A stretch of 64,000 nucleotides of DNA from a virus (IMGVR_UViG_3300015263_000944:43395-107394); one strand, 5' to 3'; positions 2,249-53,712 are shown, numbered from the stretch's first letter. The notes: a model not told the origin generated them from the letters alone. Numbers and translations: made by a program.

Positions 2249-3541
2249 TTATGCGGCTTCTCCCCGTGACTCGCAGACGATCTTCTTCTCGCCTTTGACC
2301 ACAGACTCATCGATCACAATCTTCGCCGCTTTCGGGTTGGATGGCAAGTCGAAGTGAATGTCAGTCATCAGATCTTCCACCACACTCCGAAGAGCACGAG
2401 CCCCAGTGCCGAACTTGTGAGCCTTCTCGGCGATCATTCGCAGAGCACCATCTGTGAACTCCAGATCGAGCCCACTGTAGGCCAGCTTCTTTTCCTCTTG
2501 CTTGATGAGAGCGTTCTTCGGCTCGCTGAGCACCTGCACCAGATCGTCCACACTAAGTTCTTCGAGTGTGGCGATCACCGGCAGACGACCACACAATTCG
2601 GGGATCAGCCCGAACTCCATCAGATCGTGGTGGGTACATTGGGCCAGCAACTCGTTCTTCTCTTCGTTCTTCTCTTTGGTGGGTTGCTGTCCGAAGCCCA
2701 TCGCCCGGCGATTCATTCGCTTGCCGATGATGTCTTCCAGACCGTTGAATGCCCCACCGACGATGAAGAGGATGTTGGTGGTATCGATCTGGATGTATTG
2801 CTGCTCGGGGTGCTTTCTCCCACCCTGCGGAGGAACATTGGAGACGGTGCCTTCGATCATCTTCAGCAAGCTCTGTTGCACGCCTTCGCCACTCACGTCA
2901 CGAGTGATGCTGACGTTGCCACCAGTACGACCAATCTTGTCGATTTCGTCGATGTAGATGATTCCAGACTGGGCGGCGTCGATGTCGAAATCGGCAGCGA
3001 CGAGAAGTTTGAGGAGCAAATTTTCCACATCTTCGCCAACGTACCCAGCTTCGGTGAGGACGGTGGCATCACCGATGGCGAACGGAACTTGGAGCTTCTC
3101 GGCGAGGGAGCGGGCCAGCAGAGTCTTGCCGCTCCCTGTCGGGCCGATCAACACGATGTTCGACTTTTCGATTTCCACATCCTGCAACTCCTTACGCTTG
3201 ATGAGCGGAGTTGTATGGCCGTACCGCAACTCGCCGTCGATGAGACGCCGATAATGGTTGATGACCTGAACTGAGAGCTTCCGCTTCGCTGCATTCTGAC
3301 GGATCACATACTCGTCGAGATGCTCGTAAACATCTCGGGGCGAGGGGAGAGATTCCATCTGAGAGATGAGCGTAGGCTGACGAGACTTGCGTTCCTCTTG
3401 CTCGATGGCTTCATCGCAATTGGCGATGCAGTTCTTGCAAATGTACACACGGGCCTCATCGCCGTAGGCTTTGCCTTCGACAAGGGGGCCGACCTTGTTC
3501 TTGTCGCCCCCACAAAATCCACACTTGGGTCGTGTCTTCGC
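2249..3541 (-). CDS. clpX: ATP-dependent Clp protease ATP-binding subunit ClpX
   Basis: N-terminal C4 zinc finger (CGFCGG...CKNC). Walker A GPTGSGKT, and the typical ClpX sequence through the C-terminus. GAGGAGG lies 5 nt before the ATG at 3541; the longer ORF start at 3571 is less likely. Confidence 0.9.
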
Positions 3542-3601
3542 CATAAGTTCCTCCTCTGCTGGGCTTTTCATTGCCGTCTTCCCGTCAACATCATTATAGA
3601 G

Positions 3602-3607
3602 AGTTTC
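3602..3607 (-). promoter_or_regulatory. Possible -10 element (TATAAT on minus strand) upstream of clpX
   Basis: Perfect TATAAT about 60 nt upstream of the clpX ATG. No convincing -35 was found. Confidence 0.2.
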
Positions 3608-3674
3608 TCATCTACATTTTACGGCTAATCTGAGGCAGTGTAAAGCAATTCTCCGGTAGATGTTAGGGTGAAGT

Positions 3675-4493
3675 TTACCGTGGGTGGCGGTTATCCGTTT
3701 CCTGATCCAGCCTCTCAGAAAGTTCGTCGAATTCCTCTCTACTTTGTATTGACACCAATCGTCGCTGAATGTCGGAAATCATTCGAGCCGACGCCTCAAC
3801 ATCGTGGGGCGAGACTGCTGGCGGCTCATCGCCGGTCACTGTTCGGTATAGATCCTGAAGCTGACGATGCCCCTTGGCCGCTCGAATCTCTTGTTCCGCA
3901 GCCATTGCAATGAATGCTCCGATCACAACCAACATGAAGCGACCAGACATGATTCCCACAATAGCGAATCCAATACAGCCCACTTGACCAATTCGACCAG
4001 CGACAACTGTTGCCCGCTCATGATTCTTCCATATCATCGACAGAAGAGACCTCAACACTCTACCACCATCCATTGGAAAAATTGGCAATAGGTTGAAAAG
4101 CAGAATCGCAATGTTGATATAACAAAGCGTGGCAAGGACTGTGTGGACACTTGCCGAGAACCACAATGGGGCAATCAAGAGAGCGTTGACCAGCGGTCCA
4201 GCAAGAGCAACAACAAACTCTTGTACCGGCTCAACAGGCAGTCGCATTCGGGCCGCACCACCGAACGGATAGAGGGTGATGCTATGGGGCTCGATCCCAT
4301 ATCTTTGTGCCGCAATGCAGTGTCCAAATTCATGCAGCAGGACAATGAAGAAAGCCCCGGCATAAACGGCGGCGAGATTCCCGCCACCAGCAATCAACAC
4401 AAAAAGAAAAAGAAGTACCCAACTCCAATGCAGAGTTACGGGGACACGAAACCACCTACCCAGTGGAATGTTGAGATAGTTCAGAAATTTCAT
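3675..4493 (-). CDS. Site-2 protease family (peptidase M50) zinc metalloprotease
   Basis: HEFGH motif inside a TM helix. Multiple TM segments and a C-terminal soluble domain. Confidence 0.75.
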   Translation of the reverse strand: MKFLNYLNIPLGRWFRVPVTLHWSWVLLFLFVLIAGGGNLAAVYAGAFFIVLLHEFGHCIAAQRYGIEPHSITLYPFGGAARMRLPVEPVQEFVVALAGPLVNALLIAPLWFSASVHTVLATLCYINIAILLFNLLPIFPMDGGRVLRSLLSMIWKNHERATVVAGRIGQVGCIGFAIVGIMSGRFMLVVIGAFIAMAAEQEIRAAKGHRQLQDLYRTVTGDEPPAVSPHDVEASARMISDIQRRLVSIQSREEFDELSERLDQETDNRHPR

Positions 4494-5886: not shown

Positions 5887-6750
5887 TCACTCGGAGGGAT
5901 TCTCTTCCTCTGCCCTCTCTGCTTGTTCTTGTTCTTTGGCGGCGTCTTCAGCTTCCGTGGTGCCCGTCGCCTTATCCATTTCGGCGATCACAGCACGCTC
6001 CTCCTTCACCTTCTTGAATTCCTCAAAAGGATCGAGGTTCGGGTCGGCTTCTTCTGCAAAGACTTGATCAAACGCTCCTGTGATGGCAGAGAAGCACGCC
6101 ATCACAACCGCCAGACCAGCGATCATAAATCCCATGACGATTACCCGCCCGGCTGCTGTCTGCGGGGAGAGATCACCATAACCAACCGTCGTAGCAGTAA
6201 CTTCCAAGAACCACGAAAGCGTGAAGAGGTTGCGAAATTCGGGTTGAGTCGGTCCCTCTACCTCATACAGAGCAAAGAGGGTGAACAACAGAATGATTCC
6301 CGTCATGAAAAGCAATGGTCGCAAATTGAACCATGCTCGATAGAAACCAAGGGCAACCAGTTGCAATGACCGGTTGTATCTGAAGAACTTCAACATGCGA
6401 AGCACACGCAATGTGCGAACCAAGTGAAGATAGGGCCGCAGTATCGGCAGGAACCCAATCCAGAAAGGCAAGATGGAGATCAAATCGATCATTCCAAATG
6501 CTGTGCGGGGATAAAACCCACGCCCAGAGTTCCGCCACCAGCGGAAGGCATATTCGACAGTGAAGATCAGAGCAACAATTCGCTCTGACCATAGAAAGAA
6601 GGGATGACTTCCTCTACTGTCGGTCTCTGGATACATGTGGCATTCAACAGCCAACATCGCCACGCTGTAAATCACCAATGGCTTGACAATCAGGTCGATC
6701 TTATCGATGACCCATTTCGTGGCATCCATTCGGTCAGTGCTGATCTCCAT
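5887..6750 (-). CDS. Voltage-gated potassium channel (6TM, Kv/KvAP-like)
   Basis: Six predicted TM helices. S4 segment LVRTLRVLRMLKFFR has basic residues at every third position. Pore helix plus the TVGYGD selectivity filter. Acidic cytoplasmic tail. RBS GGAAGAAGG lies before the ATG. Confidence 0.85.
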   Translation of the reverse strand: MEISTDRMDATKWVIDKIDLIVKPLVIYSVAMLAVECHMYPETDSRGSHPFFLWSERIVALIFTVEYAFRWWRNSGRGFYPRTAFGMIDLISILPFWIGFLPILRPYLHLVRTLRVLRMLKFFRYNRSLQLVALGFYRAWFNLRPLLFMTGIILLFTLFALYEVEGPTQPEFRNLFTLSWFLEVTATTVGYGDLSPQTAAGRVIVMGFMIAGLAVVMACFSAITGAFDQVFAEEADPNLDPFEEFKKVKEERAVIAEMDKATGTTEAEDAAKEQEQAERAEEENPSE

Positions 6751-9660: not shown

Positions 9661-9855
9661 ATGTTAGTCCTGTCTCGCAAACGTGATGAGAAGATCCTTC
9701 TCAAGACGCACGAAGGTCAAGAAATTGAATTGACAGTGGTACGAATCGACAACAACAAGGTACGTCTAGGCATCGAAGCCTCAGATCAGGTCACGATCCT
9801 CAGATCAGAACTGATCAACAAGGACATCCCAGAAGTTGCTGCCGTTTCGGCCTAA
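9661..9855 (+). CDS. csrA: Carbon storage regulator CsrA homolog
   Basis: MLVLSRKRDEKILL...VRLGIEASDQVTILRSEL aligns with CsrA (MLILTRRVGETLMI...VRIGVNAPKEVSVHREEI). GGAGG lies 6 nt before the ATG. Confidence 0.8.
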   Translation: MLVLSRKRDEKILLKTHEGQEIELTVVRIDNNKVRLGIEASDQVTILRSELINKDIPEVAAVSA

Positions 9856-10970
9856 CTCAACAATTCGCTGATGCTGCCGGTGCCATAATGGATTCTCATT
9901 ATGGCATCGGCAACCATCTGTGCCGTCGAGATTGTCACGACTTTCTTCTTATTCGCCTCACTCAGCCTCCAAGGGTCAACGGTGTCGCACATCACGATTC
10001 TCGTGTTGAGATCATCCATCTTCTGATTGGCGTCTCCGCAGAACAACCCATGTGTGGCGACCACAGCGAACAATTCCCCGCCAGCCGGTTCAACGGCCAT
10101 ACAGGCATTCCGCATGGTGCCACCAGTCGAGATCATGTCGTCCACGGCAATGACGTAGGCACCATCGACATCGCCGATGATGCGACCACCTTCATAGCCA
10201 GTCACGCCACTATTGGCCTCTTTTTTCTTTCGGGTTTTATCGTAGATGACGCATTCGATGGTATTCTTGGCAGGTTTGCCCAGTGCCTTCAGGCAATCGA
10301 CAAGGGCACCCCGGAAACGGCGAGCACGATGAAGACCTCCAGAATCGGGGGTGAGAACTGCAATTTTGTCTGCATCTTGCAGTTGCTTGGCACACCACTC
10401 CGCTTGGAGATTCTTGGCTTCGAGATTGTCAATGGGGCGGGAGAAAGCATTTTGCTCAGCAGCGAGATTGTGTACGTCAATGAACAGGGCTCTGTCCATG
10501 CCCACAGCTTCGAGCATCCGAGCGACGTATTTGGTGGTGATCGGCTCCCTTGAGGCTGTTTTGCGATCCTGTCTGGCCCATGCGAGATGGGGAATGACGA
10601 CCGTAACTTCGTGGGCACTGGCGTCTTTCAGCGATCCCACCATCCAGCACAACTTGACGAACTTGTCCGAAACTGATTCGTGGGCGTCCGAGTACAAACT
10701 TTGGATTACGAAGACATTGTGCCCTCGAACATTGCCAACCGCTCCATCGGCAGATTTGGCGAAGTTCTCGCCATCTGGGAAGTCTAGCTCCTCATGTGGG
10801 GTCAAGTCAATACCCACATGTTCGGCAACTTTCTGAGCGTACCCCTGAGAACTGTTCAGGCCGAAGATCTTGAATGGTCTGGGTGCCCGAGAAATCTTCA
10901 GCAAAGCAGCCGAAACTGCCTGTTGTACCATGGCTTCCGCTTCTTCTACGGTGACGAATCTGCTGGACAT
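9852..10970 (-). CDS. prs: Ribose-phosphate pyrophosphokinase (PRPP synthetase)
   Basis: Prs-type sequence throughout, including the PRPP-binding VDDMISTGGT motif. About 30-aa N-terminal extension. Confidence 0.85.
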   Translation of the reverse strand: MSSRFVTVEEAEAMVQQAVSAALLKISRAPRPFKIFGLNSSQGYAQKVAEHVGIDLTPHEELDFPDGENFAKSADGAVGNVRGHNVFVIQSLYSDAHESVSDKFVKLCWMVGSLKDASAHEVTVVIPHLAWARQDRKTASREPITTKYVARMLEAVGMDRALFIDVHNLAAEQNAFSRPIDNLEAKNLQAEWCAKQLQDADKIAVLTPDSGGLHRARRFRGALVDCLKALGKPAKNTIECVIYDKTRKKKEANSGVTGYEGGRIIGDVDGAYVIAVDDMISTGGTMRNACMAVEPAGGELFAVVATHGLFCGDANQKMDDLNTRIVMCDTVDPWRLSEANKKKVVTISTAQMVADAIMRIHYGTGSISELLS

Positions 10971-11003
10971 TCGAACTCCTTTCGGGATGATCGGGCATCA
11001 GAA

Positions 11004-11882
11004 TTATATGGCATTTTTCGACAACAGTTGAGCTTTTAGCGTGTTTCGCATCAGCATCGCCACCGTCATTGGGCCTACGCCACCGGGAACCGGGGTGATG
11101 GCGGACACCTTCTGTGAGACAGCATCGAAGTCTACATCGCCTACGATCTTTCGAGTGCCGGGAATGCGGTTGATCCCCACGTCAACCACCACGGCACCTT
11201 CCGGCACCATGTCAGCAGTGAGGAAATTGGGCTGGCCGACTGCGACCACGATGATGTCTGAAGAAAGACAGACTTCTTTGAGACGATCTGGGGGCGTGTG
11301 ATCGTGACACATGAAGACCGTGGCATTCGCTTGCCCATGGTCTTGAACGAGAAGTGCAGACAGAGGCTTCCCGACAATATCAGATCGATTGATGATCGCC
11401 ACTTTCTTCCCCGCAATTCCAATGCCGCTACGGGTCAGTAACTCCTGAATACCCTGTGGCGTGCAGGGAACAAATCGAGGACGACCTTGTAGGAGCAGTC
11501 CAACATTCGTAGGCGAAAAGACATCAACGTCTTTGTGAGGGTCGATTCTATCGAAAACCGCTTGTGCGTCAAGACACTTTGGCAACGGCAGTTGAACCAA
11601 GACCCCATGCACAGCCGGATCGTTGTTGAGATAATCGATGGTTGCCAGAAGATGGTCCATTGGCTGGGACCAATTCTCAATGCCTCCTTCGAACGGCTTC
11701 AACAGAAAACTGATGATGCCGCACTCCTCACATGCCTGTCTCTTCTTTGAGACATAAATCTCACTTGCTGGATCTTCAGAGCACAACACCACAGCGAGAC
11801 ATGGTGGCGTCATTCCAATTTTTGCTTTGATCTCTGCACGCACTTCGGCGGCGACAGCGTTCCCGTCAAGAAGTTGGGCCAT
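11004..11882 (-). CDS. folD: Bifunctional methylenetetrahydrofolate dehydrogenase/cyclohydrolase FolD
   Basis: MAQLLDGNAVAAEVRAEIK N-terminus, GKKVAIINRSDIVGKPLSALL and PGGVGPMT motifs. Confidence 0.85.
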   Translation of the reverse strand: MAQLLDGNAVAAEVRAEIKAKIGMTPPCLAVVLCSEDPASEIYVSKKRQACEECGIISFLLKPFEGGIENWSQPMDHLLATIDYLNNDPAVHGVLVQLPLPKCLDAQAVFDRIDPHKDVDVFSPTNVGLLLQGRPRFVPCTPQGIQELLTRSGIGIAGKKVAIINRSDIVGKPLSALLVQDHGQANATVFMCHDHTPPDRLKEVCLSSDIIVVAVGQPNFLTADMVPEGAVVVDVGINRIPGTRKIVGDVDFDAVSQKVSAITPVPGGVGPMTVAMLMRNTLKAQLLSKNAI

Positions 11883-39928: not shown

Positions 39929-40860
39929 GAGATCACATCTATTATCACCAATGGTCCGAACTAGGCGATGGTCCACCATATTGTAATATGAGGTGCCCCA
40001 CCATCGTATCCATCGCAACACTTCGTGGCGTCAACCCAAATGTGCCCATCACCGTCTTGGACAAAAGCGAGACGCCTCAAGATTGGGGAGAATTTCCAGA
40101 GAAGCTAAACTTCGATGTAGCTCACGATCCGACGTTCTCGTGTGAACGATACAAAAATGTAGTCGCAGGATACAAACATCTGTCTCGTTTCCCAGACTTG
40201 GTGTCCTACACCAAAGACAAAGACGAACGAGTTGTGTATGTGGACGCCGATGTCTTCTGGTTTAGAGATCCCTTCCCACTGGCAGTTACATCGAGCAAAT
40301 TGTGTATCGATGGTTGGAACACGGGGTTCTTCTACTACGAGGCACGCTATGCCAACAAATGGTTTGATCCATTTGAGGCATACATGAAATCCGCCATCTA
40401 TTCAGAAGAGTTGCGGGATGTGCTTAAACAACACGTCAATTACGATGATTGGTATGTGGTGTTTGACGAACAGATCATCACATATCTCAAGAAGACAAAC
40501 CCACAACTCATTGAAATCATTCCAGATTGTGAGCACATCACCGGCAGTCGATTGGAAGAGCTTGATCCAGACACAGCGAAAATGCTTCACTTCAATGGCA
40601 TTATGGTGCATGACAACTATCATCGCACACGACATGCCAGAGGTCTAGCAGGCATCATCATCCAAGAGTTCTATGACAACATCTGTAAATCCCTCGACGC
40701 ATCCGACATCGAGAAGATTTTCACGCCACATGCTATGAGACTCTATGGGAGCAAACGATTCTCGCTCTTTAGGAATCTGGCTCGATTGTTAGAAACGAAA
40801 ACGGACAGGCTTTATCGTCTCGATAAATGCCTGTCCGTTCCACGACTCGATCTTATTTGA
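39925..40860 (+). CDS. Nucleotide-diphospho-sugar transferase family protein
   Basis: VVYVDADVFWFRDP DxD block. ATGA coupling with the upstream gene. Confidence 0.55.
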   Translation: MRDHIYYHQWSELGDGPPYCNMRCPTIVSIATLRGVNPNVPITVLDKSETPQDWGEFPEKLNFDVAHDPTFSCERYKNVVAGYKHLSRFPDLVSYTKDKDERVVYVDADVFWFRDPFPLAVTSSKLCIDGWNTGFFYYEARYANKWFDPFEAYMKSAIYSEELRDVLKQHVNYDDWYVVFDEQIITYLKKTNPQLIEIIPDCEHITGSRLEELDPDTAKMLHFNGIMVHDNYHRTRHARGLAGIIIQEFYDNICKSLDASDIEKIFTPHAMRLYGSKRFSLFRNLARLLETKTDRLYRLDKCLSVPRLDLI

Positions 40861-41622
40861 ACAGCAAGTCGAACTCACCCTTCATGATGCCCTTGACGTT
40901 TCCCGTCTTGGTGTCCAGCCGATGATCGACAACTCGGCTTTCCATGAAGTTGTAGGTGCGGATTTTCCCGCTCCGGTGGCCTCCCTGCAACTGTTCTTTC
41001 CTGTAGGCTGCGTACTCCGAATCAGCGGCCTCTTTGGCTTGTTCGTAGACACGGCCTTGAATGATCCGACGTGCTTCTCGCACATTGCTGTGGAAATCTC
41101 TGCCGTTAATAACAACCTTGATCCCTGTGGGGATGTGGGTCATTCGGCAGCCCGACATCGTTTTGTTCTGATGCTGTCCACCTTTACCGCCCAGATTGAC
41201 GGCCTCGATTTCCAGATCATTGTCGGCGATCTTCACATCCACTTCTGGCGGCAGTGGTAAAACTGCAACCGAGACGAAAGATGTCTGCTTACGGCCCTTG
41301 CTTTCCGTAGGTGGAATACGCTGGACACAGTGTTTGCCCGGCTCATGCCGGAACGCACGACCTGCGCCTTTGCCCCAGATACGGGCCATCATATGGCCGA
41401 AATCAGAGTGAATCAGTTCGGATTTCAGGTTCAGTGAGCGAGAATACCGTGCATAGGCTGCGAATAATTCGTCAACAAAGATCTTGCTGTCGTCGCCGCC
41501 CTCGCCGTGTCGGACCTCTAAGATGATCTCGTCGGCGTCAAAGAAACCTCCGCTCCTTCAGATCGGTAGCGGTTGGGGAGTTAAAGACACCTCCCGGCGT
41601 TTTTCTTGTGCTTCTTACCCAT
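40853..41622 (-). CDS. Peptide chain release factor 2-like protein lacking domain 1 (PrfH-like), expressed via programmed +1 frameshifting
   Basis: GGQ motif (GGKGGQHQNKT). RF2-like blocks LEVRHGEGG, HCVQRIPPTESKGRKQTSF and KIRTYNF. This frame is closed 6 codons upstream of the CTTTGAC site. The ATG at 41622 has an AAGGAGA RBS in another frame. Confidence 0.7.
41537..41556 (-). other. prfB-type +1 frameshift site 2 (GGAGG-TTT-CTT TGA C)
   Basis: SD-like GGAGG, a 3-nt spacer, then CUU UGA C. Homology to RF2 starts exactly at the codon after the shift. Confidence 0.6.
41580..41599 (-). other. Putative +1 frameshift site 1 (GGGAGG-TGT-CTT TAA C) at codon 13-14 of the ATG-initiated frame
   Basis: Same architecture as the E. 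coli prfB site, but with UAA. Confidence 0.4.
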
Positions 41623-43065: not shown

Positions 43066-43101
43066 GAAGCCGGTGAGCCTTTCGACTCACCGGCTTTTTT
43101 C
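43066..43101. terminator. Bidirectional rho-independent terminator
   Basis: GCCGGTGAG-cctttcga-CTCACCGGC hairpin. TTTTTT on the plus side and a T-rich tract on the minus side. It lies between convergent genes. Confidence 0.65.
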
Positions 43102-43102
43102 G

Positions 43103-43723
43103 TCAATCATCGTCCCCGATGCCGACATTCCAATATGCCTCGCCCAAGAACGCTTCCCAGCTTTTCACTGGCTTCAGCGACTCAAACTTGAACAGGCTCA
43201 TCCGAGGCTTCTTCGGCTGCGAGAGCAGCTTCATACCGGCCTGCTTGGGCGTGCGGTCAGCCTTGCGACTGTTGCATTCCACACAAGCAAGGACACAGTT
43301 CTCCCAAGACGTTGCCCCACCCTGTGACCGAGGGATAACGTGCTCAATGGTCAATTCCGCAGAGCCGGGTCGGCAACCGCAGTATTGACACGTCATGTTG
43401 TCTCGCTTGTACAGAGTGCGTCGGCTGAAGTGGAGCTTCGGCTGAGGCATCTTGTCGTAACGAGTCAACAGGATGACTTCTGGGATTCTGAAAGCAACAT
43501 GCGCCGCTCGAAGAGCCTCATCAGTACACAGAGGCTTCAACTTGCTCCAGTCCTCCCATGTGAAGGTCTGGTAGCTTTCGTGATCGATGATGCGGGCTTT
43601 GGGCTCTCCATTCTTGTAGGTACTGAAGAGCATGATGATCGCTCGCTGAAGCGGCACAGTGCCGACTGGCGACCATCCTTTGTTGAGAACTAAGCATTTG
43701 CGTGAGTTGAGAGTGGTACTCAT
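43103..43723 (-). CDS. HNH endonuclease
   Basis: CQYCGC ... EHVIPRSQGG ... CVLACVECNSRK. GGAAGGAG RBS. Confidence 0.75.
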   Translation of the reverse strand: MSTTLNSRKCLVLNKGWSPVGTVPLQRAIIMLFSTYKNGEPKARIIDHESYQTFTWEDWSKLKPLCTDEALRAAHVAFRIPEVILLTRYDKMPQPKLHFSRRTLYKRDNMTCQYCGCRPGSAELTIEHVIPRSQGGATSWENCVLACVECNSRKADRTPKQAGMKLLSQPKKPRMSLFKFESLKPVKSWEAFLGEAYWNVGIGDDD

Positions 43724-43835
43724 CGATCACTCCTTCCTGTGTGTCTATGTGAATGTCATGTTGTGACCTCCTCTGTGACAGAAGGTTTGCGTTCCATGCG
43801 ACAAACGGCTGCCGCACTTCTCTCAAGAGTATATA

Positions 43836-44078
43836 TCAAAAGCCTTCCTCTTTCCAGTTCACCTTTTCTTGGGGCACTCTGGTTGGACGAAGCTGCCGAG
43901 CGAGTTCAACCGCCCCTCGTCGTAAGGATTCCCATTGTGCGTCGATGTTATGATGATGACGCACAAACGGGCCTTGGGGTTCGCTTCTTCTACGAATTTC
44001 TTTGAAAAGATGCGAAAGTCCCAAAGCCGTCTGGCAACCCCACAGGGTAAACACTGTAAAGAAGATGGCCCATTCCAT
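43836..44078 (-). CDS. Small TM protein, NWK(K/E)EGF C-terminal family member
   Basis: N-terminal hydrophobic helix and Arg-rich middle. Ends VNWKEEGF. Its start is coupled to the YqeY stop. Confidence 0.5.
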   Translation of the reverse strand: MEWAIFFTVFTLWGCQTALGLSHLFKEIRRRSEPQGPFVRHHHNIDAQWESLRRGAVELARQLRPTRVPQEKVNWKEEGF

Positions 44079-44079
44079 G

Positions 44080-44505
44080 TCAGGACGCCCTGATTGCCGC
44101 TACAACGCTCTTGACCGTTCCACCCTCTACCGGGGCTCCCAGCCCCTTGAGGTGCTTCATAGCGGCTCCTGTGGCCTGTCCTTCGTTGCTAAAGCTCGTC
44201 ACGTCAACGCCGTCAGCTTCCAGCCGGGCACGGATCTGATCTTCTGACCAATACTGGGGAAGCAACGACTGGAGCATCTCATTCTCGGCCACCAGCCCGG
44301 CATAGCGTGGGTCTGTCTGGTCGAGATGTCCAAGACACTCTTCGTTGGACGTAATCAGCTTCTTGACGATGCTGTGGCCTCGTTCGTCGGTGACGTTGCC
44401 CATCTCCTGTTGCAACTCCCCCAGAACGAGCTTGAGCACGTTCTTTTCTGAGGAGCCGAATGGAGCGGCCTTGATCTTTTCCCTGAGTTGTTCTTCAAAA
44501 GTCAT
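44080..44505 (-). CDS. GatB/YqeY domain protein
   Basis: YqeY-like helical repeat (KNVLKLVLGELQQE ...). The ATG overlaps the upstream stop (TTCTGATGAC). Confidence 0.6.
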   Translation of the reverse strand: MTFEEQLREKIKAAPFGSSEKNVLKLVLGELQQEMGNVTDERGHSIVKKLITSNEECLGHLDQTDPRYAGLVAENEMLQSLLPQYWSEDQIRARLEADGVDVTSFSNEGQATGAAMKHLKGLGAPVEGGTVKSVVAAIRAS

Positions 44506-44930
44506 CAGAATCCTTCTTTCTTCCAATTCACCCGTTCCAAATTTTGGACTGGTTCGGGCGGATCGAGCACAATGCCCATTTCCGCCAACTGCTGCTCATG
44601 TTCGAGAACATCACCCATCACCTCCCGGATGTAGGCTTCGACGTTCCCACTAATCCGGTGAAGATTCTGCTGCAAACGCTCTCGGGACTGTTGTTGTTGG
44701 TCCTGAATACGTCTGCGATGAGCGTTCAGCCGTTGTCGGCTTTCTTCTCGAAGCTCAGACAGCAGGCTACGATACGAGGATCTTACACTTTCTTCGTTTT
44801 CAATGATAGATCCAATCAGACCTCTCGGGAACAGGCTGTTCGAGTTGTCTGACCATTCCGAATCGTGTTGCCGCCTATACTGATCGTTTTCGTCAGAAAA
44901 AAGTTCGGCAATATCTTCGAAAATTCCCAC
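44505..44930 (-). CDS. NWK(K/E)EGF C-terminal family protein
   Basis: Arg/Gln-rich coiled segment. Ends VNWKKEGF. Stop/start overlap with the YqeY gene. Confidence 0.5.
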   Translation of the reverse strand: MGIFEDIAELFSDENDQYRRQHDSEWSDNSNSLFPRGLIGSIIENEESVRSSYRSLLSELREESRQRLNAHRRRIQDQQQQSRERLQQNLHRISGNVEAYIREVMGDVLEHEQQLAEMGIVLDPPEPVQNLERVNWKKEGF

Positions 44931-44931
44931 G

Positions 44932-45222
44932 TTACGTCACATCCACATCGTTGAGAGGAACCACAGTCTCGCCGATGGTGCATCGACGGAATCGCAATAC
45001 TAAAGTATCGTTCGGGCCAAATTTTGCAAAAACTGTTTCGGCACCGTTTAGTCTGCGGCTCACAATCTCCAACTCTTGTGTGGAGGAAACATTCCCGTCG
45101 TCCAGAAGGACATCGGGATCATTCATCATGTCAATGATGTCAGCGTGGGTAAGTTGAAGCTCAAAAACTTCCAGTGTTTTGTCTTGTGTGCGTTTTGCGA
45201 CCATAAATGTTGCCTCCAACAT
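44932..45222 (-). CDS. Hypothetical protein
   Basis: 96-aa ORF collinear with its neighbours. Confidence 0.4.
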   Translation of the reverse strand: MLEATFMVAKRTQDKTLEVFELQLTHADIIDMMNDPDVLLDDGNVSSTQELEIVSRRLNGAETVFAKFGPNDTLVLRFRRCTIGETVVPLNDVDVT

Positions 45223-45242
45223 CTATGTATCGATTTCGCCAA

Positions 45243-45274
45243 CAAAAAAGGACACCGGGTTGCCCCGGTGTCCC
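45243..45274 (-). terminator. Rho-independent terminator downstream of the protease gene
   Basis: GGACACCGGG-ttgc-CCCGGTGTCC hairpin followed on the minus strand by TTTTTTG. Confidence 0.55.
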
Positions 45275-45301
45275 TAACTCACTCACAATCAACAAGGATT
45301 G

Positions 45302-46396
45302 TTACTTCAGAGTTCCCTCTGATTTCTGGGGCACGGTCGGGGCTTCTCGCCAAACCGAACGAGTCGGGAACTTCAGTTCCGTTGCTCGGTCGCCGAGGTA
45401 GTATGGTCCCTTACCGGTGATGATGATGTGAGGCGAGGTTGGCCCTTCGCCTGCATCAGCCGCACTTCGAGAGTAGCTGAAAGTCACACCGTTGTCCTCG
45501 ACGGGCAACTTTTCAAGCTCTTCTTCAGTTGGCATCTTGACGTTGGCGTCCAACGCCCATTCAATACTGGCCTGCTTCGACCATTCTTGCATCCGGCGAA
45601 CCGGAACAATCAAATTGAAAGTCTCACCAGCACCACGCACAAGCATACCCACCATGCGTCCGTCTGTGAGGTAGACGCCGCCACCAGACGAACCGGGGAA
45701 TGCAGCAACAGTTGTCTGATCAAACACCTTCTTGTCGATCAAACGTCCGTGCTGTGACATGATACCTGTGGTCATCGAGTTGGAACCAAGCTGGCCCAAC
45801 AGAGATCCGACGTGCAACAGATTCGTTCCGAGACTCGGAATTTCTTTGTCTAAGTAGAAGGTAACTGTCGCATCAACGAAGTTCTTCTTGCGTAGACGAA
45901 GAAGAGCCAAGTCTTCCTCTGCACTGTATCGCACGACCTGAGCATAGAACTCGACCTTGCCGACCGAACGTCCATCTTCTGTGAGAGACTTCACGACCAT
46001 TGCATCGTCGAATTCGACGACAGTACGCTTTGTGCCGCTCTTCGGATCAATGACATCCTTGGTCTTTCGCAGGTTGTCCACCACATGGGCAGCCGTCCAG
46101 ACGAAGTTGACCTTTTCGCCGTTGGGGAAAGTGCGTGTCACGATAACGCCACTGCCTTCACCACCGCCGCCGTATTGGCCCTTGCTGACGATGGTAACAC
46201 TGATGTCTTGAAGGTGCTGGGCCATATTCTTCGCTTCTGTGTGATTCACAGCGTCGTCTTTGGAATTGGCATCCAGCTTCTTCTGCAATTCTGCGATCTG
46301 AGCCTTCAGATCATCAGCGTTGTCCTGTGCAAACGATGCAACAGGTGCGGCCATCATCAAGGCGACGGCCAACATTGTTGAAATAACTTTTCGCAT
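45302..46396 (-). CDS. Secreted trypsin-like (S1) serine protease
   Basis: Signal peptide MRKVISTMLAVALMMAAPVASFAQ. Catalytic His (TAAHVV), Asp (DLALLRL) and Ser (GSSGGG) blocks. AGGAGG RBS. Confidence 0.75.
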   Translation of the reverse strand: MRKVISTMLAVALMMAAPVASFAQDNADDLKAQIAELQKKLDANSKDDAVNHTEAKNMAQHLQDISVTIVSKGQYGGGGEGSGVIVTRTFPNGEKVNFVWTAAHVVDNLRKTKDVIDPKSGTKRTVVEFDDAMVVKSLTEDGRSVGKVEFYAQVVRYSAEEDLALLRLRKKNFVDATVTFYLDKEIPSLGTNLLHVGSLLGQLGSNSMTTGIMSQHGRLIDKKVFDQTTVAAFPGSSGGGVYLTDGRMVGMLVRGAGETFNLIVPVRRMQEWSKQASIEWALDANVKMPTEEELEKLPVEDNGVTFSYSRSAADAGEGPTSPHIIITGKGPYYLGDRATELKFPTRSVWREAPTVPQKSEGTLK

Positions 46397-46520
46397 AACC
46401 GGTCCTCCTAACCTTTCGTTTGTGTAGAAGAATCACACCCTACAAGGGCATTTCCCTATATAGGAGTTTGTGAGGCTTCGTTTTCCACACTTGTCATACG
46501 ACATTTGTAAAACCTACGCC

Positions 46521-46546
46521 CCAAAAAAGGGCCATCCGTGGCCCAG
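46521..46546 (-). terminator. Possible rho-independent terminator
   Basis: GGGCCA-tccg-TGGCCC hairpin followed on the minus strand by TTTTTTGGGG. Confidence 0.4.
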
Positions 46547-46662
46547 ACGACATCCTGTCGTCACTCATCCGTGAGGCCATCCTTGGCTTCCCCCCGTCAT
46601 GAAGGGTGATCGTCCTGATCAGGCTCCCCGCCCACCATGGCGGGGAGCCATCCATGGCGTGC

Positions 46663-47301
46663 CTATTCGCTGTCTTCAGGCGTGGTCGGGACATCGAGAT
46701 CGTCCTGAACGCCACTGAAGATGTTGTCCGAGACCCGTTGCAGGAACTTGGACAGTTTCGTGTAGATCGTCTTGCAGACCCGCTTGACGAAATCGTTGAT
46801 CAAACCCCAGATCATGCTGATGGGCCAGAAGCTCATCCAGCGAAGAACTTGGGCTTTATGCTGTCGCACCAATGGTGCTTCGTTGAGCAACCGGTTATCT
46901 CGATAACCTCGGTGTCGCTCCAGCTTCTCTTTCCATTCAGCACGGAACTGAACGGGCACAACCTTCGTGCTCTCTGGGAGACCCTTGCCCCGTAGGAACT
47001 CTGACTTCAGTTCTTCGTACTCTTCCAGTCGATCACGACAGAACAAGTACCATTTAACGATGCCCCACACCGCCCCGAGCACAAAATATGCTCCGACGAT
47101 GGCAAGCAGTTGGAGTGGGTTCGCTACGACGTAGCCAATGATGTCGGTGTCACCGAACCATTGGAGCAACGCACCGAACACCACAAGAGAGATCGTGGCC
47201 CCCACGCCGTTCTCCCATTCAACGAACAGGAAGAGACAGACGATTTCGGCAACCACTAAAGCCCAGAACCAGAATGTTCCAGCTACAAAGAGTTCCAACA
47301 T
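46663..47301 (-). CDS. Membrane protein (multi-TM), hypothetical
   Basis: Four or five hydrophobic helices; 212 aa. Confidence 0.5.
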   Translation of the reverse strand: MLELFVAGTFWFWALVVAEIVCLFLFVEWENGVGATISLVVFGALLQWFGDTDIIGYVVANPLQLLAIVGAYFVLGAVWGIVKWYLFCRDRLEEYEELKSEFLRGKGLPESTKVVPVQFRAEWKEKLERHRGYRDNRLLNEAPLVRQHKAQVLRWMSFWPISMIWGLINDFVKRVCKTIYTKLSKFLQRVSDNIFSGVQDDLDVPTTPEDSE

Positions 47302-47464
47302 GGTAGGAGATCCTTTCCTTATGTGACCGAATCTTAACTCAAGATGAAATTTCGGTCAAGGTGCGTTTCTTAAGCCTTCCGTCAGGCTTTTCTTTTACAA
47401 CCGCACCATGATCCCTATTCTGTAAGATCTGGTCAAGGCGAGAATAATCCTTTAAGACCAAAAT

Positions 47465-48442
47465 TTATGGATGATGTCCGCCACATTGGCAGGGTGGTGG
47501 CGGAATTTTATGATCGTCGGAGGCTGGAATGATCTGATAATCAGCATCCAACCAAACACCATTGAGATGTTCACGCATAAATGCCCGCATTTTCTCGGCC
47601 TCTGCACTCACCAACAGTTCATTGAGAAGCTCATCTTGTTTGGCCCATTTGAACTGCTCCATCTGATGACCCTTCATGTAGGTTTCATAAGATTGCTGAA
47701 GCATCCAAATAGTGAAGTCCCGGTATTGTTGGTTGTTTTCCCAGTAAGCGGGATCATGCTCGTGAACAGCCATCGCTGTCGCCACGGCATAAATGGAGAA
47801 ACCCAGACATCCAGATACACCATCTGTCCAACCACCTTTGTAGCGGCCATTTTCAACATCATCCACATTGCACTTTCCGCCCAAAACGTAGGCCGTCCAC
47901 TCATCATAAATATACAGAGGAGTGTCGTCCCATGCCTGCTGACCAACCAGATACGTTTGGTAGCGATATGATCTTAAGTTTTCTGGCACAAACTTGTTGA
48001 TCTGGCTTTTGCGGATGTTCGGCTCTTCTATGATTACAGCACGACCCTCAAGAACATAGAAGCCATTGACTCTCTTGCCTCTTTCGAAGGTGTACTTGTT
48101 TCTCAGATAGCTGTGAATGCCATGTGCTGTTTCATGGACATTGGTAGAACGCCCAGACCCATCACCAAATGGTGCTGTTGGGCTGTGACTGAGCACGTCA
48201 TTGTAGACTGAGCCAGTCTCATTGGTGGTACGATACGTTTCGACCGTTACAAAAGTTGGAACCGCTGGCGGCTTTTGTGGCGGCGGCGGTTGATCAACAA
48301 TAGGCGTAACGGGAACGGGGAGAACTGGACGAACCGCAATGGGTTCGTTCACTGCTCCTTCGTTGCTCTTCACTTTGTGAATGAACAGACCGATGTTCAT
48401 GCAGAACATCAGCACTATGGCTGCGGCTAATACGATCCTCAT
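47465..48442 (-). CDS. Secreted/membrane-anchored HExxH zinc metallopeptidase-like protein
   Basis: N-terminal TM/signal segment, Pro-rich linker (PPPPQKPP), HETAHGIH motif and C-terminal PPPPCQCGGHHP. Confidence 0.55.
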   Translation of the reverse strand: MRIVLAAAIVLMFCMNIGLFIHKVKSNEGAVNEPIAVRPVLPVPVTPIVDQPPPPQKPPAVPTFVTVETYRTTNETGSVYNDVLSHSPTAPFGDGSGRSTNVHETAHGIHSYLRNKYTFERGKRVNGFYVLEGRAVIIEEPNIRKSQINKFVPENLRSYRYQTYLVGQQAWDDTPLYIYDEWTAYVLGGKCNVDDVENGRYKGGWTDGVSGCLGFSIYAVATAMAVHEHDPAYWENNQQYRDFTIWMLQQSYETYMKGHQMEQFKWAKQDELLNELLVSAEAEKMRAFMREHLNGVWLDADYQIIPASDDHKIPPPPCQCGGHHP

Positions 48443-48450
48443 AGAAATAT

Positions 48451-48663
48451 CTAGGGATCAATAACCACAATCGCCCCGAGGTTGAAATGGCTCTCATAGT
48501 CCCAACGGAAACCATACTTTTGCAGTACAGAAACCACCAACTGGCGCATGATGACGCTGTTGCCTGTGATGATTTTCACAGGCATCTCATTGAGGAGAAT
48601 GAAGTCCTCAACCGTCGCTTCCACTTTGTCGTGGAGCACTCCGTGCAAATCCAGTGTTTCCAT
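48451..48663 (-). CDS. Smr domain protein
   Basis: LDLHGVLHDKVEA and IITGNS motifs typical of Smr nicking-endonuclease domains; 70 aa. Confidence 0.65.
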   Translation of the reverse strand: METLDLHGVLHDKVEATVEDFILLNEMPVKIITGNSVIMRQLVVSVLQKYGFRWDYESHFNLGAIVVIDP

Positions 48664-48880
48664 CGAACTTTCGATCAGTCACAACAATCTGATCTCCTAT
48701 TGCTGTCGTCTCAATGTAGACGCCATATCCCATGCCTTGGATATCTATGATGGCCTGCTCGACACCTTCTGGTGGATGGCCTACCGGCACGGGGATCGCA
48801 AGATGAATGTTGCTGAACCGATCATTGAGTTGGGCCAGCAATTGTTCCGCTTCGCTTTTCGTCATTCCACTCCTCCGCAT
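48608..48880 (-). CDS. Hypothetical protein
   Basis: 90-aa ORF overlapping the Smr gene by 55 nt. Uncertain. Confidence 0.3.
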   Translation of the reverse strand: MRRSGMTKSEAEQLLAQLNDRFSNIHLAIPVPVGHPPEGVEQAIIDIQGMGYGVYIETTAIGDQIVVTDRKFDGNTGFARSAPRQSGSDG

Positions 48881-49175
48881 TGCACGGAAGATTCATCATC
48901 ATTGTTGCTTCAATGATGGCTTTCCGCACTTTGTAAAAGAGTTCCTCTGATCCAGTATAGATCTGGAAAATGATGAAGCGGCCTTGGATGGGATGAGTGA
49001 TGCCGACCTCAGACCAATTGTCGGTCTGGTAAGCGAATTGAAAGAGGCGACCGTCTCGACCAATGCTCTGCTGGGAGAAATCGCCGGGCTTCAGACGACG
49101 GAGATAATAGCACTGTCCGCTCATTGGGGCATACTGGGCCAAACGGTGCATTATCTCGTTGAATTCAAAGTACAT
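48822..49175 (-). CDS. Hypothetical protein
   Basis: 117-aa ORF whose ATG overlaps the stop of the upstream NWKREGF gene. Confidence 0.35.
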   Translation of the reverse strand: MYFEFNEIMHRLAQYAPMSGQCYYLRRLKPGDFSQQSIGRDGRLFQFAYQTDNWSEVGITHPIQGRFIIFQIYTGSEELFYKVRKAIIEATMMMNLPCNAEEWNDEKRSGTIAGPTQ

Positions 49176-49372
49176 CAGAAACCCTCACGTTTCCAATCCA
49201 TTCTGGGCTCTCGATGTTGTGATTCTAGCCACGCCAAGAAAGCCAATACCTCTGTTTCGTTAACGGGTCGCCTGACTCTTCGGATCATTCGGATTCTGCG
49301 ATCCTCAGCGATTGCTGTGATCAGCAGTAGTGTGGTCAGGGCTATCATCATTATAAGCCCAAAAGCCGCCAT
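49175..49372 (-). CDS. Small TM protein, NWK(K/E)EGF family (ends DWKREGF)
   Basis: N-terminal TM helix, Arg-rich segment and conserved C-terminus. TGATG junctions on both sides. Confidence 0.5.
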   Translation of the reverse strand: MAAFGLIMMIALTTLLLITAIAEDRRIRMIRRVRRPVNETEVLAFLAWLESQHREPRMDWKREGF

Positions 49373-49683
49373 CAGAAACCCTCTTTCTTCCAGTCCACGA
49401 TCTCCTTCTCTTCAGTACCGGATTTGTGTCCAAAATTGTAATGTCGCAGCAGAGCAGCAATCATCAGGGCTTCACGTCGATCCTCACGAACCATCCGAAT
49501 AGCGGCTCGAATGGTTGGGCTCAAGACGTTGAACTGTTCTATCCACTCTCGTTGTTGTTGACGACGACGCTCCTCTCGTTCGGCTTGTCGTATCTGGTCC
49601 TGACAATACTCCCTGTACCAGCAGATCAGGACGAGGATTCCATAGATGATTGCGCCAATGACTGTGAAACTCGTGGCGAACAT
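49372..49683 (-). CDS. Small TM protein, NWK(K/E)EGF family (ends DWKKEGF)
   Basis: Start at MFATSF (49683) abuts the upstream stop. TM helix, then an RQAEREERRRQQQ stretch. Confidence 0.5.
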   Translation of the reverse strand: MFATSFTVIGAIIYGILVLICWYREYCQDQIRQAEREERRRQQQREWIEQFNVLSPTIRAAIRMVREDRREALMIAALLRHYNFGHKSGTEEKEIVDWKKEGF

Positions 49684-50048
49684 CAAAACCCCTCGGCCAT
49701 CCAATTGACCTTCTCGAATTGTCGTTTCTGTTTCTTTGGTCGCTGAGTACGTCGTTGACGAGTAGCGATGTCGGCCAAACGTCTCCGTTGGCGTTCGGCC
49801 TGTTCCTGTACCCATCTCTCAGAACGCTCGAAACGACGTACATCGAGGGATGCCGCCTCTTCGATAACTTGCACCGGATCATAGTTATACACAACGATAT
49901 CAGCGTAAGTGTCTCGAACTCTCCAAGCGTTCTGAGAGAATCTTTCAGTTCCATAACGACGTGCCGAAACAACGTCTTCAAAAGCGTGCTCTGCCTCAAA
50001 GCGAATCCATCCTTTGACTTCGAGAGTAAATCTCATTAACTCACCCAT
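49683..50048 (-). CDS. NWK(K/E)EGF family protein (ends NWMAEGF)
   Basis: Arg-rich coiled segment. GAGGGG codons for the final EG act as the SD for the next gene. Confidence 0.5.
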   Translation of the reverse strand: MGELMRFTLEVKGWIRFEAEHAFEDVVSARRYGTERFSQNAWRVRDTYADIVVYNYDPVQVIEEAASLDVRRFERSERWVQEQAERQRRRLADIATRQRRTQRPKKQKRQFEKVNWMAEGF

Positions 50049-52158: not shown

Positions 52159-52196
52159 TGAAAAAAGCCAGACGGGTTTGAGGCCCGTCTGGCTTG
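52159..52196 (-). terminator. Rho-independent terminator
   Basis: AGCCAGACGGG-tttgagg-CCCGTCTGGCT hairpin followed on the minus strand by TTTTTTC. Confidence 0.6.
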
Positions 52197-53592: not shown

Positions 53593-53663
53593 GTACCCCC
53601 TAGAGGAGTCGAACCTCTTCTAAAACTTTAGGAAAGTCTTGTGCTTCCGTCACACTCAGGGGG
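53593..53663 (-). tRNA. tRNA-Arg (anticodon CCU)
   Basis: Manual cloverleaf fold. Acceptor GCCCCCT/AGGGGGT. D arm GTGT-GACGGAA-GCAC. Anticodon stem AGACT/AGTTT with loop TTCCTAA. T arm AGAGG-TTCGACT-CCTCT. Discriminator A. 71 nt without CCA. Confidence 0.65.
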
Positions 53664-53712
53664 CTCGGAATGTTGCATTGTAACATATCTAGCCGAAACA
53701 CTAAATATCTCT

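Follow-up and report, generated by a model that had tools for sequence, protein, structure and literature searches.

A shared C-terminal peptide on unrelated small phage proteins as a probable docking tag

We analyzed a 64,000-nucleotide (nt) stretch of a viral genome (IMGVR_UViG_3300015263_000944:43395-107394, hereafter the window), in which five small genes between 43.8 and 50.0 kb encode proteins with almost the same C-terminal ending, hereafter the tail. This ending is a portable short linear motif at the extreme C-terminus, [E/D]-K-[V/I]-[N/D]-W-x-x-E-G-F-COOH, that is kept by selection on the peptide and is restricted to phage contigs. We judge the tail, at a probability of about 0.7, to be a docking or address tag that acts at the peptide level and brings proteins to one common conserved reader; this value refers to docking and not to the assignment of ClpX as the reader, which is weighed separately below. 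Docking to a partner is what we infer from a conserved peptide that is terminal, portable, confined to phages, retained by orthologues, and placed outside the predicted fold.

All five genes lie on the minus strand, and a six-frame regular-expression search found W..EGF-stop at their ends and nowhere else in the 64 kb, in agreement with the original prediction made from this DNA:

43836-44078, minus strand: tail gene 1; 80 amino acids (aa), N-terminal transmembrane (TM) helix, tail KVNWKEEGF; stop TGA then TATATAC, without an overlapping start
44505-44930, minus strand: tail gene 2; 141 aa, GTG start; soluble, Arg/Gln/Glu-rich helical protein, tail RVNWKKEGF; TGATG overlap with the YqeY-like gene
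49175-49372, minus strand: tail gene 3; 65 aa, N-terminal TM helix, Arg-rich juxtamembrane stretch, tail RMDWKREGF; TGATG overlap with a 117-aa gene (48822-49175)
49372-49683, minus strand: tail gene 4; 103 aa, N-terminal TM helix, Arg/Gln/Glu-rich helix, tail IVDWKKEGF; TGATG overlap
49683-50048, minus strand: tail gene 5; 121 aa, bbabb (b, strand; a, helix) N-terminal domain, long helix, flexible linker, tail KVNWMAEGF; TGATG overlap with the next ATG

The Joint Genome Institute (JGI) gene calls for the source contig (Ga0247387_10000286, 100,747 bp; record coordinate = window coordinate + 26174) match the tail genes. The start of gene 4 was placed at 49683 (protein from MFATSF) on the basis of the JGI call and the TGATG overlap, while the mechanical list of open reading frames (ORFs) runs to 49815. 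As had been predicted, three of the five proteins begin with a hydrophobic helix that is followed by an Arg-rich stretch, genes 5, 4, and 3 stand head-to-tail, and genes 2 and 1 flank a YqeY-like gene (44080-44505). Since the Arg-rich stretch comes after the TM helix, the positive-inside rule predicts a cytoplasmic tail in these three membrane proteins. An overlap between the stop codon and the next start codon had been claimed for the junctions in general; it holds at four of the five, where TGATG lets the next ATG use the A of the stop, but not at gene 1, whose junction reads TGATATATAC and is followed by a 112-nt spacer.

The bodies of these proteins tell a different story from their tails. 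With the tail removed, the five fall into different BLAST clusters and have no detectable mutual homology, and the same tag stands on more than 100 unrelated bodies; hence they do not make up the five-member family that had been proposed. The five tail proteins and their neighbours obtained no significant family assignment in Pfam, PHROGs, NCBIfam, or PADLOC, as expected from the earlier failure to recognise the family, and none of the five matched Pfam PF07068 (Gp23 major capsid protein). A search of IMG/VR with two whole window proteins returned no relatives; orthologues of the window genes emerged only through metagenome loci seeded with the motif and through a HMMER search of representative proteins.

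The seed was a 24-nt degenerate pattern for [N/D]-W-K-K-E-G-F-stop, worth ~38 bits or about one chance match per 2.7e11 positions by our own estimate. It matched 15 IMG/VR contigs and 101 metagenome stretches, and nearly all of these matches are real ORF ends. The seeded loci (L numbers below) contain 214 W..EGF-stop ends; 198 of these close an open frame of 40 codons or more, and the distinct ones number 162. By contrast, 596 Gb of bacterial and archaeal genomes gave 12 seed matches, which is of the order of chance (~4 expected, again our own estimate); 10-11 of the 12 are junk frames of 8-35 codons or lack a following stop, and the one convincing cellular case is a 157-kb contig binned with a Pirellulaceae metagenome-assembled genome. 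Seed matches on metagenome contigs of 0.47-1.9 Mb were not ORF ends. Loci with tails range in G+C content (GC) from 0.30 to 0.56, and their contigs reach 501 kb. A 44-residue tail profile run against an index of 5.8 billion proteins recovered seven proteins, a count limited by the word index. The tag is undescribed: it is absent from the four family libraries named above, and motif and concept searches found no description of it in the searchable literature.

The motif is bound to the end of the protein. In frames of at least 60 codons, [ND]W..EGF was directly followed by a stop in 168 cases and was internal in six, five of which read ...EGFW, an artefact of the seed permitting TGG at the stop position. 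Tails also occur in tandem, in up to 21 consecutive genes (10 kb of locus L041), 10 in L121, eight in L123, and six each in L044, L115, and L118. The genes of the longest array (L041 1-10319; contig MDTG01031237.1, 120 kb, GC 0.33) encode proteins of ~150 aa that mostly end in NWQQEGF, NWQGEGF, or NWEREGF; this array extends past the locus start and may be longer. We also asked whether genomes have tail 'flavours' of their own, as co-adaptation or gene conversion might produce, and found none at the amino-acid level: identity at the variable positions was 0.379 within genomes versus 0.370 between them (p ~0.37), and the only within-genome similarity, at third bases, is codon bias.

Removal of the tails left 160 bodies (median 99 aa, maximum 241 aa) that form 119 BLAST clusters, 102 of them singletons, and even among the 210 pairs of the 21-gene array just 18 show BLAST similarity. 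About 9% of members have an N-terminal membrane-like helix. The commonest bodies are fragments of gp23-type major capsid proteins, which score above the PF07068 gathering threshold over profile positions 2-34 or 148-205 of 376 only; no tail-bearing protein matched PF07068 at full length. On a genuine capsid protein of L106, 423 residues long and itself tailless, these fragments fall at residues ~2-60, 194-263, and 355-391; their tblastn matches in deposited phages are annotated gp23-like capsid proteins. Because the bodies differ in origin, the three capsid segments included, the tail must have been joined repeatedly to unrelated proteins.

The proteins made of a capsid fragment plus a tail (L126 245-718, L086 686-1156, L014 5620-6272, L062 1899-2111, L106 4904-5119, and others) are of three kinds, carrying an N-arm that is Gol-like, the segment of the spine helix (LKAxWSxEAQQDL), or a segment from the C-terminus. 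In T4 gp23, the N-terminal fragment aligns with residues 98-128, inside the first quarter of the protein, and this would place it in the Gol-like region. A review identifies this most conserved part of gp23 with the Gol peptide, which binds EF-Tu and triggers the Lit protease (PMC3014915). Proteins that join such fragments to the tail could be decoys of the capsid or of EF-Tu. The tail itself gave weak BLAST alignments to two internal strings of T4 gp23 (RWAGESF and PWNEMGF), which were rejected as not significant and not conserved in the related capsid protein.

Orthologues retain the tail. Those of genes 5 and 4 in L031, L033, L070, L089, and L060 all keep it; in the gene 4 orthologues of L060 and L089, the TM helix and the linker are retained too, and in L089 the gene still neighbours gene 5. 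To obtain a sample free of the seed, we took residues 1-85 of the gene 5 protein (121 aa), which exclude linker and tail, as the query against 1.84 billion representative proteins. This search gave 53 hits (E ≤ 1e-3, 27-46% identity), and 51 of the 52 non-self homologues end in hydrophobic-[N/D]-W-x-x-[E, rarely D/K]-G-F. The motif is thus conserved in homologous genomes, the point on which the original prediction had staked itself. Between body and tail, the linker of this family varies from 25 to 100 residues and defies alignment; of the family's four invariant columns (W42, W116, G120, and F121), three belong to the tail. No member of the family was found in 50,697 deposited phages. An AlphaFold2 model built on the family alignment (mean predicted local distance difference test score, pLDDT, 91) has a bbabb domain (residues 7-56), a long helix (58-101), and a low-confidence linker, and it presents the tail as a free appendage (pLDDT 50-72); in the model, the tail is not part of the fold. 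Fold searches with this model offered no hint of function: the matches, all weak, were small phage proteins that are uncharacterised, and coiled coils of a generic kind. A second island, R-L-R-G-F-N-F-V-G-x-x-P, is present in the linkers of P0015, P0021, P0025, P0027, P0034, P0045, P0048, P0059, L070, and L089 and absent from the window protein; it may be a second linear motif.

At the DNA level, the window junctions are 62-73% similar over ~37 nt. This similarity ends with the tail (~25-37 nt) and involves only the first two positions of the codons; no flanking direct or inverted repeats were found at the junctions. The DNA consensus that had been written for them is a recurring motif (four matches at ≤3 mismatches versus 0.02 expected from shuffles) but fits only two junctions exactly. 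Among the 162 distinct tails, Val at -8 and Gly at -2 are each written in four codons, and Asn, Asp, Glu, and Phe in both of theirs; the stop is TGA in 94, TAA in 54, and TAG in 14. Synonymous sites and stop codons vary freely, and selection therefore acts on the peptide and not on the DNA. The same variation of Gly, Phe, and stop codons ruled out frameshifting or recoding at TTY-TGA. A tag delivered by transfer-messenger RNA (tmRNA) was also considered, and the window contains no tmRNA. Rfam had no match at the junctions; the only two hits in 42.5-51.5 kb were elsewhere and sub-threshold.

What might read such a peptide? It is strictly terminal, ends in a hydrophobic residue, sits on a flexible linker, and is uniform across genomes, which suggests one conserved reader of the free C-terminus. 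The tail sits on a flexible, length-variable linker behind soluble domains, behind membrane-anchored helices (as a cytoplasmic tail), and behind capsid-protein fragments, and the unrelated tagged proteins would all dock through it on one surface of the reader. Our leading candidate for this reader, put forward tentatively, is a ClpX-type AAA+ unfoldase encoded by the phage:

2249-3571, minus strand: phage ClpX; zinc-finger N-domain PF06689, AAA_2, Walker A, GYVG pore loop, RKH loop, and MGF at the ClpP-docking position

The pore of ClpX recognises free C-terminal tags, and adaptors such as SspB dock through their C-terminal peptides on its zinc-finger domain. The tail could act like the C-terminal tethering peptide of SspB or like a C-terminal degron, in which case the bodies would either bind targets or be cargo themselves, and the tail would hand them to ClpX. 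Relatives of the window ClpX occur in 183 IMG/VR stretches, the closest (60-61%) on contigs of 177 and 459 kb. The 177-kb contig carries tails (L005, L140) together with a ClpX that is 60% identical, and it is the only other tail contig above 100 kb that could be checked. In the window, the clpX gene adjoins that of an M50 (site-2-type) membrane metalloprotease (2249-4493, minus strand, for the pair).

Several points weigh against the docking tag and against ClpX as its reader. Most loci were found with a seed that encodes WKKEGF, an ascertainment bias from which only the body-only family search is free. No tail lay within 10 kb of any of 80 phage ClpX genes (±10 kb read), though the two are ~40 kb apart in the window as well. 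The tail resembles neither the end of ssrA (LAA) nor the XB peptide of SspB (LRVVK). Because the two phages in which tail and ClpX co-occur are related, they amount to about one observation. It is not obvious, moreover, why a pure degron should require 10 residues and an invariant Trp. ClpX is put forward as a candidate partner that may bind the tail.

A more far-reaching version, which we consider improbable but worth stating, is an orthogonal tag-reader system in a clade of large uncultured phages, in which dozens of small proteins per genome would dock on the phage ClpX, working with host or phage ClpP. Their bodies would serve as exchangeable adaptors, bringing in either host defence factors or proteins of the phage itself to be unfolded or degraded. 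Such a system would include membrane anchors as well as decoys derived from Gol-like and spine-helix capsid segments; it would be a viral multi-adaptor system, comparable to proteolysis-targeting chimeras (PROTAC-like), that evolves as tandem gene arrays.

The main alternative, which we regard as unlikely, is that the tail is a prohead- or virion-targeting signal, a C-terminal counterpart of the N-terminal capsid-targeting sequence (CTS) of T-even phages that would load small, fast-evolving proteins for co-injection. The tail-bearing phages do have gp23-type capsid proteins, and fragments of the capsid protein form several of the bodies; several of the window proteins consist of long charged helices, as a scaffold might, and hypervariable arrays would fit such a role. 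However, ~9% of all members and three of the five in the window are membrane-anchored with a cytoplasmic tail, no conserved L/I-x-E protease site lies upstream of the tail, and most loci place the tail genes among accessory or metabolic genes and not among head genes. The head-core proteins of T4, for their part, have no such tail.

We attach a similarly low probability to a reader supplied by the host, that is, a conserved cellular protein (e.g. a protease, a chaperone, the replisome, or a translation hub) on which many phage proteins would converge. Uniformity of the tag across phages of GC 0.30-0.56, which probably have different hosts, is what a very conserved cellular surface would produce, and membrane-anchored and soluble members alike present the tail in the cytoplasm. 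Nevertheless, no cellular protein with this ending was found in the 596 Gb, and there is thus no evident mimicry of a host tail; the phages appear to be one clade that shares many genes, so that a phage-encoded reader explains the uniformity equally well; and no specific host candidate was identified.

The explanations that make the peptide incidental fare much worse than docking. According to one of them, the junction is a translational-coupling module at the RNA or DNA level, consisting of a Shine-Dalgarno (SD) sequence and a stop/start overlap. The Glu-Gly codons do spell an SD-like core, GAGG or GAAGG, 6-7 nt before the overlapping ATG, and this core is present in ~82% of tails; an ATG overlaps the stop in 80 of the 162 tails (49%), as TGATG does at four of the five window junctions, and lies at most 4 nt from the stop in 108 (67%). 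The core is, however, about as frequent without a following start (78%) as with one (84%), and the one third of tails that lack a nearby start are conserved equally. A following start makes no difference to the choice of GAG vs GAA, AAG vs AAA, or GGR vs GGY (Fisher p 0.2-0.8), and the GAA:GAG ratio for Glu is 2.2:1 in tails against 2.3:1 in gene bodies. An SD sequence, moreover, cannot account for Trp, Asn/Asp, Val, or Phe, and third codon positions and stops vary. The original prediction had the K-K-E-G codons forming the SD sequence; this stands for the Glu-Gly core but not for the Lys-Lys purine run, as positions -5/-4 of the body-only family are L, K, Q, I, M, R, A, V, S, or E, with no purine constraint, while W, E, G, and the terminal F are conserved. 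Because codon choice is unchanged by a downstream start and the Lys-Lys purine pair is not conserved, we take coupling to be a by-product: the SD-like core and the stop/start overlap arise from the Lys-Glu-Gly-Phe-stop codons and are used by downstream genes, but they are not the cause of conservation. The coupling module as a unit, with conservation residing in the amino acids while synonymous codons and stops are free, is in that sense largely refuted, and we consider it very improbable.

Least probable of all is the proposal that the junction bounds a mobile small-gene cassette or marks a recombination or homing site, possibly linked to an HNH protein, that shuffles small genes: a tail gene does stand directly before one HNH family in seven of nine loci, and the bodies are extremely diverse and include gene fragments, but the repeat-free DNA similarity described above stops at the tail, junctions identical in DNA (synonymous sites included) around different cargo are absent among the 162 tails, most tail arrays have no HNH gene, and tails are missing around HNH in LR756511.1 (a 595-kb deposited phage) and in Rctr197k. 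The latter two observations also ruled out the HNH protein as an obligatory partner of the tail.

The window as a whole is an accessory region of a large phage, with many glycosyl-, methyl-, and sulfotransferases, a radical SAM enzyme, NADAR, and NDK. Hairpins that resemble intrinsic terminators split the tail genes into two minus-strand units, at 52.2-46.5 kb and 45.2-43.1 kb. T4-type late promoters were absent, and sigma-70-like sites were at chance level. The features around the tail genes are as follows:

52165-52195, minus strand: terminator-like hairpin that opens the unit with tail genes 5, 4, and 3
46529-46544, 45248-45275, and 43067-43096, minus strand: matching terminator-like unit ends
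44080-44505, minus strand: YqeY/GatB-like gene between tail genes 2 and 1, without a tail; Pfam YqeY below cut-off, PHROG 1460 at E 2e-16
43103-43723, minus strand: HNH protein of 206 aa, of a kind recurrently found after a tail gene; 63% identical to the HNH protein after a TM-plus-tail gene on an unrelated 501-kb contig
43724-43835, minus strand: conserved 112-nt leader from tail gene 1 to the HNH gene, with TATATAC at 43829-43835, GTCACAG at 43773-43779, and a mini-ORF at 43745-43759

The strong hairpin at 45248-45275 also drew a sub-threshold Rfam hit to the small RNA BjrC68 (23.6 bits versus the 39 needed), for which an intrinsic terminator is the simplest explanation. Between the two tail-gene operons lies a gene for a secreted trypsin-like protease (PF13365; 45302-46396, minus strand). 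A syntenic module recurs in more than 10 metagenome loci and consists of a 96-aa protein, one or more tail genes, YqeY, a TM-tail gene, and HNH, together with proteins of 150, 138, 117, and 90 aa, a Smr-like protein of 70 aa, and a TM+HExxH protein of 325 aa. The Smr-like protein (48451-48663, minus strand), kept in five lineages, has by eye the LDLHG motif typical of Smr and no library hit; the 325-aa protein (47465-48442, minus strand), found in six lineages, has an N-terminal TM helix and an HExxH motif (HETAHGIH) and matched no family.

In an alignment of four independent lineages (the window, L052 591-701, L101 172-287, and L091 6531-6676), the leader that separates the tail gene from the HNH gene is conserved. 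Its mini-ORF has four codons, M-T-F-T-stop in the window and M-[G/T]-F-T-stop overall, with an SD sequence of its own and synonymous variation; AAGGAG and the start of HNH come next. The mini-ORF could encode a translated leader peptide with a regulatory role for HNH.

Elsewhere in the window, genes related to translation include one for a short release-factor-like protein with PCRF and RF-1 domains (40853-41392, minus strand; 178 aa), the YqeY/GatB-like gene described above, and one tRNA-Arg(CCT) at 53593-53664. A PTH2 peptidyl-tRNA hydrolase gene lies just beyond the window, and L135 1744-2136 belongs with these translation-related genes. Other unusual cargo (~9661-9855, plus strand; 5887-6750 and 9852-11882, minus strand) comprises a CsrA homologue, an Ion_trans-type channel, phosphoribosyl pyrophosphate (PRPP) synthetase, and FolD.

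Directing unrelated proteins to one machine by short terminal tags is both a powerful organising principle and a tool, with the T4 CTS, encapsulin peptides, ssrA, and SspB as examples. The tag described here is unusually sharp, with its invariant W, G, and terminal F, and unusually widespread, standing on at least 119 unrelated bodies and in up to 21 genes consecutively, and it groups a large part of the small-orphan-gene 'dark matter' of big phages into one functional class. Should its reader prove to be the phage ClpX or the prohead, the tag could be of use for targeted degradation or for loading cargo into capsids.

Among known systems, the tail shares with ordinary translational coupling (TGATG or TAATG, with the SD sequence inside the upstream gene) the overlap at four of five window junctions and half of all tails, and Glu-Gly codons that place GAGG/GAAGG at ideal spacing; ordinary coupling, however, has no conserved upstream decapeptide, whereas the tail is conserved with or without a downstream start. 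Cargo-loading peptides of encapsulins are likewise short, C-terminal, carried on a flexible linker, and common to unrelated cargo, and their reader is a shell of the HK97 fold. Their targeting consensus is rich in Gly, Ser, and Leu, unlike that of the tail. Encapsulin cargo genes adjoin the shell gene, whereas tail genes are mostly far from the capsid gene and some encode membrane proteins; no shell gene was found next to the tail genes of the window.

With SspB and ssrA, the tail has in common a folded body, a variable linker, and a conserved peptide of ~10 residues at a free C-terminus, which is required in those systems, and the genome of the window also encodes a ClpX that has the zinc-finger docking domain. 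It differs from them in sequence, EKVNWxxEGF being by inspection unlike LAA, LRVVK, or RRKKAI-like tags, and in standing on more than 100 different bodies where the SspB peptide stands on one adaptor. Co-occurrence of tail and ClpX is documented for two related contigs only, and the likeness is one of architecture, which makes a shared mode of docking a possible analogy.

The CTS of T-even phages (IPI, IPII, IPIII, and the polymorphic internal-protein, IP, loci) is N-terminal and unrelated in sequence, whereas the tail is C-terminal (168 terminal versus six internal occurrences). The CTS is removed by the prohead protease; the logo of the tail from -16 to -9, by contrast, shows only E/D at -10 and K at -9 and no L/I-x-E site. 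The tail is also found on membrane-anchored proteins. The two are nevertheless alike in that a short terminal peptide is the sole common feature of diverse small proteins in gp23-type phages, just as the CTS is the only feature common to the diverse internal defence proteins of T-even phages (PMC3012670). For the tail, this holds across 119 unrelated body clusters, in a clade that has a gp23-type major capsid protein. In both systems, the genes often lie in variable loci.

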